A stretch of 63,663 bases of DNA, counting the filler, from Globobulimina sp. (lineage: Eukaryota): assembly GCA_003354225.1 (NCBI GenBank). It is 34 parts of 34 records of this genome, joined end to end, with 100 filler letters (N's around TTAATTAATTAA, not from the genome) between each part and the next. Parts side by side here need not be neighbours in the genome. Positions count along the whole stretch, not along the records: positions 56,268 to 58,041 come from PIVH01012097.1; 33 more parts are not named here. The stretch is one strand, 5' to 3'. The notes under the pieces were generated by a model. That model was not told where the DNA came from. It saw nothing but the letters and a program-made list of their open reading frames with translations, and did not search any database. Numbering within the stretch: the stretch's first letter is position 1; each line of letters begins with the position of its first letter. Shown one piece after another: positions 14,913 to 63,663 of this stretch. Both the position numbers and the translations under genes were made by a program.

Positions 14913-15304
14913 NNNNNNNNNNNNNNNNNNNNNNNNNNNNNNNNNNNNNNNNNNNNTTAATTAATTAANNNNNNNNNNNNNNNNNNNNNNNNNNNNNNNN
15001 NNNNNNNNNNNNTTCATTATAAATTTCTCCAATCCCTAAAATGTCTCCTTTGCTCCACTCCATCCATATTTCATTTGTGCCAAATTTATGCAATACAATT
15101 TTTCCATTAATGCAATCCAAACTGGCCACTCGGTCAAATTTTTTTTTTAGAGGGAAACACCAATAATCTGGCATCAAAGTACTGTAAATAGATTGCGAAT
15201 ACAACCTGCGAATAAATAATCACTCTTATTACCTGGAACAAGATGATAAAACACATAAAGGCACACGAAAAATGCATAGAAATGTCTTTAAAAAGGAAAA
15301 GGTT

Positions 15305-16788
15305 TTAAATAAAATCGTGTTGACTATATTGGCTGCTCACAATGCTTTGCTTCCTCAATTCATACGTTCTCTCGATTGTAAATAGAGTAATGATGTAAAA
15401 GAGATACTGCATTTGCGTTTTGTAATTTAGCTGAAATAAATTGGAAACCCCAATGGATTCTGATTCCTCGCAATTAATATTTGCTGCTCTCAATAGGCCA
15501 ATTCTTTTCAAAAACGTAACAAATTTCCGCTGAAACCCGCCGAAATCCTCCATAATTAATGGTTGATACAAAAGGCCGTCAACGGCATTATTCCTGATGT
15601 AATTATCGTATTTATTTATTTTGTGATTGTAGAAATTATTTGCCGCGGACAATTTCTTGTTGGCCGCCGCCTGAACCCTTGAACTGCACACGACTGAGCA
15701 CACACCAACGTCAAGAGCGACTGACCCCAATTATTAATATAGATGTCGGCTGGCTTCATATTATTCGCATCAAATAAATGCCGCCGCTCAATAGAATGCT
15801 CAATATCTGCGGACTTCAATAATGTTGATATGCCATAGACAATCTCGTCGTGTTTGTAAATAATGCCGGTTCCATGCTTACATATGACGCCATGGTCCGC
15901 CATATTATCGACCAACTCGTCACACGCGATGCATTTCCTGTTGTTAATAACTAATTGATGCCGTAATTTCCGTTTGCATAATATCCTAAATTCAGGATTA
16001 CTAAGCACCAACCCATAGCCATGGATCATTGGTGCGTTTAGCCACGCATTCGCGTTGCGGGTACCCTGTGAATAGAGAGCCGCTTTGTGGGCACCAGATT
16101 TGGTACTCATAAACCGATTTAATACGCGCGTTTGTATGGCGTTGACCATCCATTTCGTAGTGTGTTTCTCCGGAATGAATACATCAATTTTATAACTGGT
16201 TGATACGTTTGCATTGTACAACGACGTGCTGTATGCAATGCGTTGTTCGATCGTAGGTAAGAATGCGGCAAATATTTCTTCTGAAACAAGTGTCTTCGCA
16301 ATGGCTGTCGACGCATGAAGAGCTGGGAGATAGATCGCGCTTAGTTTGTTGGTAGCGGTGCGTAATCCAAATCCTGTCTTTTTTATCGATAATCCACATT
16401 GTACAAACTCCTCCTCCGACAGAATAAATCCAAACATACGGGATATAATCTCTCGTAACTGGCTGTCGTAAAACCTCGCGATTTCCATAGTTATGTCGGG
16501 AGGGACAGAACTAAACCAATATATGAGTCGTGAATCATTTATAAAGTCTCTCATTATTTTATATTGAGCCTGGGCTAATTGTAGGGTCGCAATGCGCGAT
16601 ATACTGCGTTTAATGTCCGTAACTTTCTTGCGAAGCTGTAAGATAACGAAATCCTGAGAGCCAATGGGTATGCTCAGGCATTCCGTGTTGCCATGTTCAT
16701 TGACTTTAAATTGTTTTAATGAGTCCGATAACAAATGCTGAATCGATTCAGCGCTCCAGGCGCACGTTATAATGCTTTTTGAGGCGTT
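15305..16788 (-). mobile_element. Degenerate non-LTR retrotransposon with restriction-like endonuclease (CRE-like): RT C-terminus, CCHC finger, RLE
   Basis: LSIPIGS, GFGLR, CIAC...DHGVIC...HDEI, KPADI..(frameshift)..ALDVGV, KINKY, PLIMEDFGG, and a second frameshift before FQFISAKLQNANA. Confidence 0.85.
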
Positions 16789-41271: not shown

Positions 41272-43046
41272 TTGTATATTTAATGTTTTCTTTTTATTAG
41301 TTGGCTTTTTGCGTGGTTTTGGGGTGTAATTTATGTCGATATCCGCTTTATCGACGTATTCCAATGAAATTGAGTTAATGTTATTGCGCGTAATCTCGCC
41401 GATAATATCAATATCATTCAGTGCGATATCCTCGCACTTGGCTTTGATTTCATTTTCTTCAATTTTTGTGCTGATACTATAATTGGTGCGGTCGCTCTCG
41501 CGTTGATTGGCCCAGTCTGTCCAATAATTGTTATCGATATATGGAGCGAGAATATTTGTATCTGGTATTCGAATAAATTTCGACCAAAGGTTTGCTTGCC
41601 GATATTCCACATAATCATCAAAATTGTGCCACTTAATTTGCATTTCCATAATATGGAGTGGTGCGGAATTGTCACTGTCACCGTTACTAAATCGAATCAT
41701 ATCGTTATATAATGACTTGATTTTTGATCTAATATTTGATGAAGAAGCGCCCCATAATTCGATGCCATAGAATTTCGGGAGAATTAGTGATTTGAATAGG
41801 TGTTGAATCCATGTGGCTTTTATGGATTTTGAGTTGCCGAGTTTTTACATTTATGATAGATTTTTTTCATCCATAATTCTAATGTCATATGTACGTCCAT
41901 CCATGCACCTAAATATTTGACGGCGGTGTATTCGCGGGTGATTGGTGCGAATTTGTTATCCAAATCTTTCAACATCACTATATTTAAGTAGTTGGCGGAA
42001 TGATTGTAGGATGGCGGTATGATTTTGCTGGGTAGCCATACGATATATTGCTGCTTCGGAACTGACATAAGGAGCTGTTTGCTGCGGATTATATAAGTAA
42101 TTATCCGTAGCGCGAGATTAAAGTTATCTGTTAATATGATATGGTCAGTGATTTGACCATTGGATATTATGCCGTTATCATCGGCAAATGTTACCAATGT
42201 GATGCCTAAATCCATATTATTTAATATTTCCATGTCTTTCTCACCTAACAAGCAGAGGACGCTTGAAGGTGACCAACCTTGTCCTAATCCAATTGTTTCC
42301 TGTTGCCATTTTGTTTTGTATCCATTGACAACTACGCGGATCCAGCGATTATTCAATGCTGCATAATAATATTTGAATATATTGCTAATGTTAATAATAA
42401 AATGTTAATGGTTCCCGATGAAACACAACCTTTAACAATTCAATTTTGACTTTCAATGTTTTTATTTTGAATAATCTGTGAAAAACTGTAAATTCAAAGA
42501 GTTTGCAGTAAAAAACAGTAATTTCAAACTGAAAAGCAAAAAGTTAAATGTTACCTTTAACATTTTATTATTAACCTATTTTCCTTCCAAAATCAGTTAG
42601 TTTGATGTGACCCAAATTGACTGCGAGGCGTAAAGTACGGCGTGCGATGATTTTATCTAAAGGCTTGATAAAATTAGATCCAATTTGGAGTGGTTGTAGA
42701 TTCTTCATCTTGCGCTTATCTTTGCCACTTTTTGGCTTAAAGTGGACTTCTCCCAAATTTGATTCATCCATACGTAGCCCGTTGAGATATAGCATATTGT
42801 AAAGCAAATAAAGTGGGCGTTCGATGGCTTCGTAGTTACGTTGCATAACTTTGTTTGAAATGTGATTGTGACAGATAGCTTTATTTTGGCCGAATGAGAA
42901 TACAGAATTCTTGATTTCGGCGTTTGATAATGGCGCATTCGCGTATCTTAATTCGCGAATCAATTTTGTGGATGGAATGGCTTGTTTGCGCTCTAAGCGC
43001 CAATCTTTTAATAATTTGTTGATGATTTGGTTCTCTTTAATTTGCA
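41272..43046 (-). mobile_element. Degenerate LINE reverse transcriptase interrupted by an insertion
   Basis: EIKNSV...KA, KPKSGKD...NLQPLQI, GLGQGWSPSS, TFADD, VKYLGAWMD; frameshifts present. Confidence 0.88.
42390..42575. mobile_element. AT-rich MITE nested in the LINE RT
   Basis: GTTAATAATAAAATGTTAATGGT / ACCTTTAACATTTTATTATTAAC, 22/23 inverted match. Confidence 0.75.
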
Positions 43047-56167: not shown

Positions 56168-56313
56168 NNNNNNNNNNNNNNNNNNNNNNNNNNNNNNNNN
56201 NNNNNNNNNNNTTAATTAATTAANNNNNNNNNNNNNNNNNNNNNNNNNNNNNNNNNNNNNNNNNNNNCGTACATAAACAAATCAAATCAAATATAAATCA
56301 AAACACATTACAA

Positions 56314-58041
56314 ATGAAAGGATGCACATTTACAAACACTTCGCGCAAATCAAATTGTTCAATTTGCAATTTATCCTATAAACAATCTAAATCATATAAA
56401 ACAAAACAACCAAAAGCCGCATTTATTAGACCCAGTCCCCATAACAAAGGATTTAGTAATAAACCTAAAAATTCTCCAGTCACATTAGCTGATTTTTGCG
56501 ATAATATTATGCATCAATTAAAGCCCTCAGTACCTGTATGGATATGTAATGTATGCACATATTGTAACATTCAGCAACTACCACTCTGTCAAATGTGTTT
56601 TAATCCATATTCATTGAATGAACAACAAGATTATGAATATGTTAGCTCCGCGGAACAACAACTTATCATTGACAGCGTTAATCTGTCTAAAAAACAACAA
56701 ATCGACACAACGGATATAAAAACGAAAAAAAGAGCTAAATTCAGTGTGGATAAATTAATAAAATTAAGAGAAAAACAATGCGAATCAATGCCAGAAAATA
56801 TCATCAATGAGATACCTGATATATTATCACCTGGTTTAGGTAGAAAAATGCCGCCAAAATCACACGAAAACAGAGCGAAATTTAGCATGGATACATTGAT
56901 GAAATTACGTCGCAACAAACAATGCGAACGTATCCCTATGAATGTAATCAATGAAATGCCAAAAATATTGTCGTTCGGGTTAGGTCGTATACAGTCCACT
57001 GCAAAAAGAGCGAAATTTAGTATGGATTCATTATTGAAATTGGAAAACAGCGAAGAATGTGAATTAATGCCGCAAAATATCATAACTAATATACCGGAGA
57101 TATTATCACATGAATTTGGGGTAAAAACGGAAGAAAAATCGAAGAAAAATCGAGCAAAGTTTAGTGTGGATAAATTAATTAATTTGCGGCATACAGAATT
57201 ATGTCAATTAATGCCAGAAAATATAATCTATGAAATACCGGCGATATTATCACTTGGTTTAGGTCTGCGAATACAGCCAAAATGTGTTGCGAAACGTGAT
57301 AAATTTTCAGTAAATGAATTAAAAAAATTACGAGATTGTGAATCGTGTAAATTAATGCCTGCAAATATAATAAATGAAATACCCCATATATTATCACCAG
57401 GTTTAGGCATAAAACGCATCAAATTTAGAATGGATAAATTGATGCAATTACGACACGATACACAGTGTCAAATAATGCCAGAGAATATAATTAATAGTAT
57501 ACCAGAGATATTATCCTTTGGTTTAGGTATAAAAACGCAAAAATTACAGAAAACAGACGAAAAATGCATAGCAAATGCAAAACGAAGCAAATATGCGATA
57601 TCAAAATTAATGGAGTTACAACAGTGTAAGGTCTGTCATGCAATGCCATTGAATATAATCAATGAGATACCCGAGATATTATCATTTGGATTGGGCCATA
57701 AACATAGAAATCCAGCAAAACGAATAAAATTTACAATCAATCGATTAATTATATTGAGATATGAAGGGAATGGACGACATGGATTTAGTTTGAAGAAATT
57801 AAAAGAATTAAGATTTGCGGATGGATTTGATTCAATGCCGGATGATATTATTAATGAAATACCGCAGATATTAGCACCTGGATTGGGGGTAAAAGAGAAA
57901 AAAGAAAGGAATGGATTTGGATTGATTATGAAAGCGAGATTATTGAGAAATAATTATAGTGAAATAAATAGTAAACAAGAAACAGAGACAGTGATTGCGG
58001 AACAGATTGAAATGAATGGTAATGAGAATATGGATAAATTT
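56314..58041 (+). CDS. RanBP2/NZF zinc-finger protein with a tandem array of ~40-50-aa repeats resembling eIF4E-binding modules, 3' partial
   Basis: CTFTN...CSIC and WICNVCTYCN...CQMC; repeat consensus R.K(F/Y)S.D.L..LR....C..MP.NIINEIP.ILS.GLG. Confidence 0.85.
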
Positions 58042-58534: not shown

Positions 58535-59051
58535 ATGCCAGGTCTACCAGCCGATGTTCAGGAAGAAGTAAAAGAATGTTTTGATTTATTTGACAGAACA
58601 GGGTCCGGCAAAATAGTGGTTGATATGTTAGGGAGAATAATCCGTTCCGTAGGCCAAACGCCATCGAATGCAGAAGTCGCAGATTACATAAAAGAAATTG
58701 ATTCGGATTCAGCGGGAACTTTTGATTATGCCTCGTTAGTTGCATTGTTAGAGCGGCATTGGAAACCGCCAGCCGATGCGGACCAAGTTATTGAAGCGTT
58801 TAAAATATTCGATCCCGATGGCACAGGAATGATATCTTCAAATGAAATGCGCACTGTCATGACCAATTTAGGTGAAAAATTAACCAACGAAGAGGTGAAT
58901 GCTATGTTAAAAGAAGCGGATCCACAAAATAGTGGCAAAATTAATTATGCAGGTTTGTCATTTATTGACTCGCAAATTCGCAAATTTTAATTGTTTTTTT
59001 ATCACAGAGTTCGTAATGAATATGGCGAAGCAAACACTAAAATTAAACTAA
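58535..59051 (+). CDS. Calmodulin-like EF-hand protein / myosin light chain; intron 58953-59007
   Basis: [58 protein letters not shown]; spliced end INYAEFVMNM. Confidence 0.9.
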
Positions 59052-61789: not shown

Positions 61790-61913
61790 NNNNNNNNNNN
61801 NNNNNNNNNNNNNNNNNNNNNNNNNNNNNNNNNTTAATTAATTAANNNNNNNNNNNNNNNNNNNNNNNNNNNNNNNNNNNNNNNNNNNNTCGCCGAGCTG
61901 AACGAGCTGCTGA

Positions 61914-63320
61914 TCTAGACAAAGCCATGACGATGACCATTGCATCATTGACGAAGCAGGACAGTGCACAGAACCTGACATTCTAATCCCTTTGATCTAC
62001 GATATCGACAGTGTGGTCTTAGTGGGCGACCCGCAGCAATTACCAGCCACTGTATTCGCGCAGGGACCGTCTGCCTGGCTGTACGAGCGGAGCTTGTTTG
62101 AGCGGTTAATGAGCGCGGGATACCCGACGCATTTATTGGATACACAGTACAGAATGCATCCGGAGATCTCCTTCTTTCCCAACTTGCACTTTTACGGCGA
62201 CAAACTGAAAAATGGGCATAATGTGCTGGGGCCGAAGTATATGTTCAACTTCCATTCGCATGTCAGTGCGTTGTATAAACCGTTTCTGTTTTTCAACATT
62301 TCGGCTTCGAGCATGAAGTATGGCGCTGGAGGACATTCGCTGTATAATCGGGATGAGGTTGCTTTCATTACACAGCATTTGGAATCTTTTTATTCCGACA
62401 ATCAGTATACGGAAGTGAATGAGATGCAGATTGGGGTTATAACTCCGTACAAACAGCAGCAGAAAAAGATAATTGATGCGTTGCAGTCGAAACAATACAA
62501 TTTGTCGTCTAAGAATATTGAGGTGGCCACGGTCGATTTTTATCAAGGTCGGGAGAAGGACATTGTCTTTTTTTCCTGTGTGAGGGCAGGCGGTCAGAAT
62601 GGGATTGGCTTTTTGTCGGATATTCGAAGAATGAATGTGGCCATAACGAGGGCAAAGTACTCGTTGTGGATTGTGGGGAATAATATATCTTTGCAGAAGA
62701 ACCCGGATTGGAATGAGTTGATTAAACATGCAAAAAATAGAAAGTGTATGAAAATTATTAAGTATAACAAGCAAATGAAAAGGTATTATGCCGTTGGTAA
62801 TAAACGCGAGAATAAGATAGTTAGAATTCCGAGGCCTACGTTGTTAACAGATAATAATCTGAATAGACATAATCAGAATGGCAATAATCAAAATAGGCAT
62901 AATCAGAATAGGCACCATCAGAAGAATAATAATCAGAATATGCACAATCAGAACAGTAACAATCAAAATGGCAATAATCAGAATAGGCACAATCGTAATC
63001 ATAATCATAATAATCAGCATAGGCATAATCAGAACAGTGTCTCTGTTCCAATGATTATTGATTATGGAAATATGAATCACTTTAATCAGCATCGCAATCA
63101 TCATCATCACCATCTCCAACAACCACCGCCAGTACCACCGCAACAGCTGGCTCGTATAATAATGCCTCATCCACAATATATGCAACCACATATAATTATT
63201 CACCCGAACCACCCGAGAAATGTAATGCAACAACTCCAAATACAGCAGAATGATGCTATGATGATTGATTATACGCGGAATCAACCGAATCATGCAAACA
63301 GTTCCGCTTTTGATGATTAA
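61914..63320 (+). CDS. Sen1/senataxin-type SF1 helicase C-terminal half with N/Q/H-rich tail, 5' partial
   Basis: IIDEAGQCTE, VGDPQQLPATV, SLFERL, QYRMHPEI, GVITPY, EKDIVFFSCVRA, IGFLSDIRRMNVAITRAK. Confidence 0.9.
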   Translation, partial: SRQSHDDDHCIIDEAGQCTEPDILIPLIYDIDSVVLVGDPQQLPATVFAQGPSAWLYERSLFERLMSAGYPTHLLDTQYRMHPEISFFPNLHFYGDKLKNGHNVLGPKYMFNFHSHVSALYKPFLFFNISASSMKYGAGGHSLYNRDEVAFITQHLESFYSDNQYTEVNEMQIGVITPYKQQQKKIIDALQSKQYNLSSKNIEVATVDFYQGREKDIVFFSCVRAGGQNGIGFLSDIRRMNVAITRAKYSLWIVGNNISLQKNPDWNELIKHAKNRKCMKIIKYNKQMKRYYAVGNKRENKIVRIPRPTLLTDNNLNRHNQNGNNQNRHNQNRHHQKNNNQNMHNQNSNNQNGNNQNRHNRNHNHNNQHRHNQNSVSVPMIIDYGNMNHFNQHRNHHHHHLQQPPPVPPQQLARIIMPHPQYMQPHIIIHPNHPRNVMQQLQIQQNDAMMIDYTRNQPNHANSSAFDD

Positions 63321-63663
63321 TTCTATTCTTGTTTTCGACTCTTTTGTTTTTTTTTTCTGGCTGCGCTCATATTTGCTCGTGGTACACAAATCCATCCGTT
63401 TCTTGCAGTTTGAAGAAGAAGAATTTTTCACAGTTTTTCTTTGTGCTAAAATTATCTCGGTTCACGTTTGTTGCAAACGTAAGGGAAATAGTCGGTGTTA
63501 TCTCTCTGAATATATCGTTAACCTACTTCGCTCACTTGATGAAAACTTCAATATCTAAGTTCTCACGAGTTAGACTTTGCTAAACAGCACTATCAATTTA
63601 CTAAATTGAATTGCAACATTGGCAGAATTATTTAGCTGTTTTTTAGGCACCGCGGGGTTTAAA

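Follow-up and report, generated by a model that had tools for sequence, protein, structure and literature searches.

The protein partners of the cap-binding protein eIF4E are not known to have more than a single bipartite site or two binding motifs. The canonical motif is a YX4L-Phi helix whose extended consensus also has R/K at position +2 and R/K/Q at +9, and an elbow loop, tipped by a Pro, leads together with a linker to an element on the lateral surface (PMC4573856). In protist versions a helix, a loop, and a second “lateral” helix extend over ~38 residues, and the basic residue at −1 of eIF4G pairs with Asp143/144 of eIF4E (PMC10810786). The present study concerns a gene in a 63,663-base stretch of DNA from Globobulimina sp. 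(assembly GCA_003354225.1), which we call the window. This gene encodes two zinc fingers of the NZF type followed by a tandem array of ~40-residue modules that are laid out like the bipartite regions described above. The array protein is probably a new, lineage-specific, multivalent eIF4E-binding scaffold, and its modules probably add a new sequence family, at an unprecedented copy number, to the known bipartite 4E-binding regions.

A motif scan combined with alignment revealed eight in-register copies of the module, each of 39–41 residues and with the consensus KRAKFSxDKLxKLRxxxxCxxMPxNIINEIPxILSxGLG, plus one half copy. Their positions in the window are as follows.

56719..56841, plus strand: module 1, used in the co-fold described below (motif scan, alignment).
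56863..56985, plus strand: module 2 (motif scan, alignment).
56998..57120, plus strand: module 3 (motif scan, alignment).
57142..57264, plus strand: module 4, which has NIIY-x-IP in common with the module of P0014, a stem-loop-binding protein (SLBP), and a similar linker downstream (RIQPKC, against KIHPKC in P0014).
57286..57408, plus strand: module 5 (motif scan, alignment).
57406..57528, plus strand: module 6, which abuts module 5 (motif scan, alignment).
57574..57696, plus strand: module 7, the sole copy in the window with Tyr (K-Y-AISK-L-M) (motif scan, alignment).
57718..57759, plus strand: half module, a basic/F-x4-L-x2-L-R helix without the MP...IPxIL half (motif scan).
57766..57888, plus strand: module 8 (motif scan, alignment).

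The preliminary description of this DNA had placed eight full repeats and one partial repeat at 56728-57888, and this proved correct: KRAKF of repeat 1 begins at 56728, and repeat 8 closes at 57888. Beyond repeat 8 lies a second, degenerate piece in which the module pattern is not kept. In the relative P0005, a fuller copy that includes the C-x-x-M-P half stands at a place that seems equivalent to that of the half module. Aligned over 41 residues with one single-residue gap, the eight modules are 55-73% identical to repeat 1, with a mean column identity of 67%. The repeats are not a product of chance, because a profile built from the eight copies in the window matches 9 stretches of the relative P0003 (453.8 bits) and 9 of P0002 (404.1 bits). 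Tandem Repeats Finder found no array of the module period in the DNA, which indicates that the copies are old at the DNA level. Moreover, the inter-repeat identities by codon position (0.66/0.75/0.51, with an amino-acid identity of 0.53) fit conservation at the level of the protein and not of the DNA.

A word-indexed search returned two relatives of 870 and 985 residues that are 41-42% identical to the window protein and share its layout, with a long C-terminal region in addition. An exhaustive HMMER search of 1.84 billion cluster-representative proteins, for which the eight window repeats supplied the profile, returned 15 proteins at E ≤ 0.001, of which 13 are credible: 12 members or fragments of the array family, and P0014, an SLBP. 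The other two, P0015 (350 aa, E 5.2e-5) and P0016 (141 aa, E 1.6e-4), are low-complexity proteins of short tandem repeats and were set aside as probable chance matches; these short repeats, with P-[ST]-N-I-I-[NT], weakly resemble the second half of the module. The preliminary description had called for orthologues to be sought among the Rhizaria, and all four members that bear a species name in EukProt come from Foraminifera, namely Ammonia sp., Nonionella stella (twice), and Bolivina argentea. The window DNA, too, would accordingly come from a foraminiferan or a near relative. At the sensitivity of this search, the array family thus appears to be confined to this lineage. The orthologue repeats align position by position, and the array therefore predates the split of these species. 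A scan of metagenome contigs for further relatives of the array protein gave 66 pattern matches, none of them confirmed. No Pfam family exceeded its cut-off for the array proteins when P0001-P0007 were examined, and the family has neither a Pfam model nor a name in the sources consulted.

Position counts over 21 equal-length modules from three orthologues delineate the conserved residues. Near-invariant are R(−3) (20/21), K(−1) (18/21), F/Y(0) (21/21), and L(+5) (21/21), and conservation extends to L/F(+8) and R/Q/K(+9), each in 19/21, and to M-P at +17/+18. The second half of the module, N-I-I-N-x-I/V-P-x-I-L-A/S-P-G-L-G, is nearly invariant over the same modules, and we know of no non-canonical motif that resembles it. 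In the window, an aromatic residue at 0 and L at +5 are present in all eight repeats, +9 is R or Q in seven, and a Pro elbow (M/I-P at +17/+18) and a downstream hydrophobic element (I/M-P-x-I-L at +25 to +29, inside the 15-30-residue range of 4E-binding regions) are found in every copy. The conservation falls on positions that are important in known 4E-binding motifs, which supports the eIF4E reading. The bipartite layout proposed in the preliminary description thus stood, being conserved and under selection over the 21 modules. However, the extended consensus is present only in part: the window repeats have a basic residue at +2 in 0/8 and a hydrophobic residue at +6, the Phi position, in 6/8, the other two having K there.

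Structure prediction bears on how such modules might be organized. The alignments behind the fold models are shallow (8-9 rows), and “disordered,” as used here, denotes a prediction. For the whole protein, AlphaFold2 (AF2) with nine homologues gave a mean predicted local distance difference test value (pLDDT) of 40.6 and a predicted template-modeling score (pTM) of 0.19, with short helices only, over the F-x4-L-x2-L segments, and no sign of a solenoid or of repeat–repeat packing. A single module, modeled with the eight-repeat alignment, was predicted as a helix-turn-helix with helices at 10-23 and 28-39 (pLDDT 70.4, pTM 0.28). These two helices, together with the conserved hydrophobics that occupy ~15 of the 39 positions, are what would be expected if each module folded by itself as a small helical hairpin and the array had a structural role or bound nucleic acid, rather than being a series of binding peptides. 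The low pLDDT and missing inter-repeat packing of the whole protein speak against this, as do the low pTM of the single module and the lack of any PDB fold at E ≤ 0.001, although the shallow alignments weaken these points. In addition, linker lengths vary, and orthologues and related sequencing runs have gained or lost pieces in frame, as for beads on a string. We therefore regard an autonomous domain as quite unlikely. When the single-module model was compared with the PDB by Foldseek, the only two rows were eIF4E-bound peptides, T. cruzi EIF4G5 and C. elegans Mextli, with E values of 5.4 and 7.5; these are not significant and are a curiosity rather than evidence. Thus, neither AF2 nor Foldseek bore out a self-contained known domain, the outcome that the preliminary description had held against its own proposal.

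To model docking, a stand-in eIF4E was taken from a degenerate eIF4E-motif scan of metagenome contigs, which gave 115 loci; all nine complete open reading frames (ORFs) checked by Pfam were IF4E (175-206 bits). Window repeat 1, which is of the F type, was co-folded with residues 36-226 of locus L066, from a contig of 33% G+C, by ESMFold2 without supplied alignments. The three runs scored 0.78, 0.77, and 0.78, against 0.00, 0.00, and 0.03 for the controls, and pass the mark that in calibration was reached by 51/78 solved complexes and 2/108 mismatched pairs and, among eukaryotes, by 39/65 solved pairs that had no similar complex among earlier structures and 2/126 unrelated pairs. A pass of this mark supports binding without demonstrating it. 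The pLDDT of the partner was 70-72, and the runs share at least 91% of their contacts. Contacts were mapped by hand via a phmmer alignment to full-length human/mouse eIF4E. The modeled dorsal contacts correspond to human H37-Q40, V69-D71, W73-L75, E132, and L135-E140, and the modeled lateral contacts to human 61-66, N77-L81, and 84-85. In the model, F8 of the module contacts the H-P-L stretch, L13 contacts the equivalents of V69 and L135, L16 and R17 contact the equivalent of W73, and residues 19-38 lie on the lateral side. As modeled, this docking is the bipartite mode of 4E-BPs. The preliminary description had suggested co-folding single repeats with eIF4E paralogues of the host; docking on the dorsal surface was indeed predicted, well clear of the controls (0.78 vs 0.03) and with both dorsal and lateral contacts, but on a stand-in and not on the organism's own eIF4E.

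The module also occurs outside the array, in a protein of mRNA 3′-end binding and translation. P0014 (283 residues) contains the SLBP RNA-binding domain (SLBP_RNA_bind, PF15247) at residues 91-157 (64.6 bits, E 8.4e-18, cut-off 27) and bears one module ~12 residues upstream of it. Seven SLBP sequences from several sources were aligned, six of them complete at the N terminus and the seventh cut there. The module is kept in all six complete sequences, as R-K/Q-Y-TLKD-L-N-x-L-R...C-x-x-M-P...I-L/F-S/A-P-G-L-G-L, with Tyr at position 0, and is the best conserved SLBP segment outside the RNA-binding domain. Its presence in SLBP as well as in the array marks the module as a portable unit. A direct contact of SLBP2 with EIF4E2, an eIF4E paralogue, has been reported in Trypanosoma brucei (PMC7139794; bioRxiv 10.1101/2022.05.10.491326), and the segment reported to make it is central and lacks the canonical motif (PMC7139794).

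Several observations weigh against eIF4E as the partner. Phe occupies position 0 in 20/21 modules and Tyr in only one, so that the contact made by the Tyr hydroxyl is lost. The preliminary description had already remarked that F prevails and may weaken binding; in the window Phe is found in seven of the eight repeats and Tyr in one. Position +2 is V, M, I, or L in all eight window repeats and never R/K, and over the 21 modules +6 is K in 7, L in 5, and M in 4, with N in the SLBPs. The preliminary description had proposed a comparison with the eIF_4EBP, 4E-T, and eIF4G motifs, and no homology to them emerged: neither the whole protein nor any of the eight single repeats matched such a family in Pfam at E values of 10 or less, and a PDB profile search with the repeat gave two chance-level rows, neither a 4E-binding peptide. 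YX4L-Phi-like strings occur in ~15% of yeast proteins (PMC7139794). The precedent of T. brucei SLBP2 is a loose one because its contact segment is reportedly without the canonical motif. The exhaustive search found no eIF4G-like protein with the module. The stand-in eIF4E comes from a metagenome eukaryote, not a foraminiferan; peptides and disordered chains lie outside the calibration of the co-fold; and the pass may reflect learned likeness, since many eIF4E–peptide complexes have been solved. For the single repeats, the only Pfam row was SCIMP, at E 0.11. A ribosomal protein chain in the PDB, 8q87_Bv, matched through “IPRILGPGL” (E 0.78) and was dismissed as a coincidence; this chain (217 residues) has “RPKFSV” and, 50 residues on, “IKQIPRILGPGL”, which are like both halves of the module.

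Under the main rival to eIF4E binding, the module would be a docking peptide, particular to this lineage, for another partner, either a MIF4G-type protein such as SLIP1, the partner of metazoan SLBP and presumably the vertebrate intermediary referred to below, or a messenger ribonucleoprotein (mRNP) or transport factor, and the array would be a multivalent scaffold for that partner. Such a peptide would not need homology to known 4E-binding families, which the module does not have, and could depart from their consensus as the module does at 0, +2, and +6; moreover, the strongest conservation lies in the second half, for which 4E-BPs are not known to offer a sequence counterpart. Vertebrate SLBP is described as reaching eIF4E not directly but via an unknown intermediary (PMC7139794). 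The co-fold with eIF4E, which scored far above the controls and placed the expected residues in contact, argues the other way, and we judge a different partner to be rather unlikely. Taken together, the conserved positions, the modeled docking, and the copy in SLBP lead us to consider it somewhat probable that the modules bind an eIF4E-family protein.

Ahead of the array, the window protein carries the following elements.

56323..56367, plus strand: zinc finger 1, C-terminal two thirds (C-TFT-N-x6-C-x2-C), the W-x-C-x2 part lying off the contig (alignment with P0002).
56539..56598, plus strand: zinc finger 2, RanBP2/NZF type, W76-C95 (PDB match, invariant columns).
56632..56679, plus strand: helix that lies between finger 2 and the array, with the conserved sequence Y-E-Y-x-S-x-A-E-Q-x-L-I-x-x-S-V.

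The preliminary description had recognized two RanBP2-type fingers before the array, one with a T-Y...M pattern, and both are borne out: finger 2 is an exact fit to W-x-C-x2-C-x3-N-x6-C-x2-C, and finger 1 is complete only when a loose end from the contigs of three sequencing runs (X1, X2, X6) is added. T-F after the second Cys, combined with a hydrophobic residue between Cys 3 and Cys 4, marks ubiquitin-binding NZF fingers. By this signature (T-F/T-Y, hydrophobic between Cys 3 and Cys 4), both fingers are predicted to belong to the ubiquitin-binding class: finger 1 has T-F and S-I-C at the corresponding positions, and the T-Y and Q-M-C of finger 2 align to the T-F and E-M-C of NPL4, whose NZF is its closest PDB match (E 0.55, not significant). 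The Pfam family Zn_ribbon_RanBP is reached weakly, in one orthologue (P0006, 17.5 bits against a cut-off of 27). In the helix that follows, columns Y107-V122 are near-invariant in three orthologues, and a helix is predicted at low confidence over 112-130. It matched no family, and a UIM is an improbable identity since the spacing misfits the UIM motif.

RanBP2-type fingers also occur in nucleoporins such as Nup153 and Nup358, and a PDB comparison of the finger region listed Nup153 second (E 4.7). Since S-F-G-L-G ends three of the eight window modules, the fingers and array could be taken for a nucleoporin-like factor with FG-type repeats. Rather than many FG dipeptides in low-complexity spacers, however, only those three module ends carry F-G; over the 21 modules the position of that F is P in 16 and F in 3, the orthologues having mostly A-P-G-L-G; the conserved part, 35 residues, is non-FG sequence; and SLBP carries the same module. 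We accordingly give this reading hardly any weight. The P-G-L-G ends likewise resemble the P-G-G-G ends of tau repeats, which are of similar length, and would be in keeping with microtubule-binding repeats of the tau/MAP kind. Pfam found no tubulin-binding repeat at E up to 10, and the SLBP context and the eIF4E co-fold point elsewhere, which makes such repeats highly improbable. Both readings were rejected, given the absence of a tubulin-binding match, the non-FG modules, and the SLBP context; like the autonomous domain discussed above, they fit the data less well.

The extent of the gene could be defined in part from the contig and from other sequencing runs.

56268-58041: contig with the array gene.
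56268..56320, plus strand: 5′ contig piece that is not common to other runs, ends in AG, and holds the ATG at 56314 (contig comparison across runs).
56321..58041, plus strand: ORF of the NZF-array protein, cut at the 3′ side by the contig end and continuing upstream at the 5′ side (translation, run contigs).

As translated here, the window protein (P0001) is a 576-residue open frame on the plus strand, 56314-58041, that is open up to the contig end. The contigs of X1, X2, and X6 diverge from the window at 56321, all with the same 30-base loose end, which, read by hand, is in frame and supplies ...IPIWQCS ahead of R-CTFTN. Because the loose end carries the frame on upstream, the ATG at 56314 is not the true start. 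In the window, AG stands immediately before 56321, and 56268-56320 most likely belongs to an intron, as its last part, with a break in the assembly as the alternative. The ORF is free of joints in the contigs of four public runs, and the sequence was found in eight sequencing runs of four studies, none of the eight listed as RNA and three of them possibly RNA. In contigs of related runs (X6 and, in part, X8), in-frame insertions and deletions are present relative to the window: +6 in all at 57010-57011, −24, and −27 bases. These contigs suggest that the frame of the array gene is kept in a sister strain or species. The sites are at 57010, 57478, and 57915, and the related contigs are also ~5% substituted.

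Past the array, full-length orthologues have an acidic stretch and a conserved C-terminal region (~640-870 in P0002, ~500-985 in P0003, and ~480-925 in P0004), exemplified by ...EIGFIAK...YNKYTKSYYYRDK... and by the final ...RYVxxKWxAYWK; the window contig stops before this region. It has no Pfam match, and a search of the ESM Atlas with the P0003 region gave no usable match.

The window as a whole consists of 34 contigs of 1,774-1,777 bases each, sorted by length and of unrelated content, which are joined by 33 spacers with TTAATTAATTAA between N50 runs, ~1,875 bases apart, over its 63,663 bases. Since these are separate contigs, the gene neighborhood is not readable and reading across the spacers is meaningless. 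Among the other contigs, 58535-58990 (plus strand) holds an intact 151-residue ORF whose translation has the look of an EF-hand protein of the calmodulin or myosin-light-chain type. By eye, 41272-43046 (minus strand) and 15013-16788 (minus strand) have reverse transcriptase/retroelement-like ORFs with an F-A-D-D stretch, and 61890-63663 (plus strand) has an open frame of 468 residues that contains motifs of superfamily-1 helicases (DEAGQ..., VLVGDPQQLP) and is Upf1/Sen1-like.

If the modules bind eIF4E, the array is a multivalent holder of eIF4E, and a model for its action can be outlined. The protein would be a Foraminifera-specific scaffold in which two NZF-type fingers precede a disordered array of at least eight portable ~40-residue cassettes, each of which would hold a single cap-binding protein of the eIF4E family by two elements, as do 4E-BPs, eIF4G, and the 4E partners of protists. 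The basic-F/Y-x4-L-x2-L-R helix would lie on the dorsal surface, against the H-P-L motif, the Val/Trp of helix α1, and helix α2; a Met-Pro turn would come next, and the N-I-I-N-x-I-P-x-I-L-x-P-G-L-G element would then occupy the lateral surface. In this manner the protein may gather many eIF4E molecules, with their capped mRNAs, in one place, and competition with eIF4G could make it a repressor or a storage or transport scaffold. The fingers may serve as an address, possibly aiming the scaffold via ubiquitin. The preliminary description had pictured a multivalent eIF4E sponge or scaffold linked to ubiquitin or RNA recognition; multivalent sequestration and a link to ubiquitin are our inference as well. 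A bolder scenario, which we regard as possible and, taken as a whole, doubtful, is that Foraminifera evolved a portable, 40-residue, two-part eIF4E cassette and used it once in SLBP and eight- to ten-fold behind ubiquitin-binding NZF fingers. The SLBP copy would then tie the histone-mRNA 3′ stem-loop directly to the cap-binding protein, and the array might hold ~ten eIF4E-capped mRNPs for storage, for long-range transport along the reticulopodia, or for a ubiquitin-triggered shut-off of initiation.

In the full-text literature available, with subscription journals and supplements outside it, no tandem, multiple, or multivalent eIF4E-binding arrays are described, only “two eIF4E-binding motifs”; the accessible literature that treats eIF4E or translation initiation in Foraminifera or Reticulomyxa, again with subscription journals outside, contains nothing on such a protein or on their eIF4E partners. 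If the eIF4E reading is true, eight to ten sites in one protein would amount to a new form of cap-dependent translation control, via stoichiometric capture or clustering of eIF4E-mRNPs, and would furnish a ready test case for multivalency-driven mRNP condensation. The SLBP copy would be a second independent, direct bridge from 3′ stem-loop to cap, after that of trypanosomes. The finding would also be among the first Foraminifera-specific features of translation control.

Comparison with known systems places the array protein between several of them. Its fingers resemble the NPL4-type NZF, in that the Cys and Asn spacing of finger 2 is identical and the T-F and M of NPL4 are matched; the match itself is below significance (E 0.55), ubiquitin binding is a prediction, and we know of no NZF protein with 4E-binding motifs. 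In the T. brucei SLBP2–EIF4E2 complex, an SLBP is joined directly to a cap-binding protein, and the foraminiferal SLBPs bear the module beside their RNA-binding domain; however, SLBP2 reportedly uses a noncanonical central segment, and the foraminiferal SLBPs are putative eIF4E binders. 4E-T and Cup are reportedly scaffolds that keep eIF4E-bound mRNAs silent in granules. Their eIF4E sites are one canonical plus one noncanonical, or two motifs, and they also bring in DDX6/CCR4-NOT; none of these further motifs was seen in the array protein, no search aimed at them having been made. The role that we propose for the array protein is of the same kind, with a long, disordered chain that keeps eIF4E out of the reach of eIF4G and collects mRNPs, although 4E-T and Cup are not known to carry more than two eIF4E sites. 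A further likeness is to the bipartite regions of 4E-BPs, eIF4G, Mextli, TbEIF4G5 (79-116), and Leishmania 4E-IP1, which, like the module, span ~40 residues and comprise an amphipathic helix (aromatic residue at 0, L at +5, R/K/Q at +9) that a basic residue directly precedes, followed by a Pro-containing turn and a second hydrophobic element or helix. In contrast to these regions, the modules have mostly Phe for Tyr, a nonbasic +2, a variably hydrophobic +6, and no sequence homology to them, and the array proteins contain eight to ten copies each, as opposed to the one or two of known eIF4E partners.

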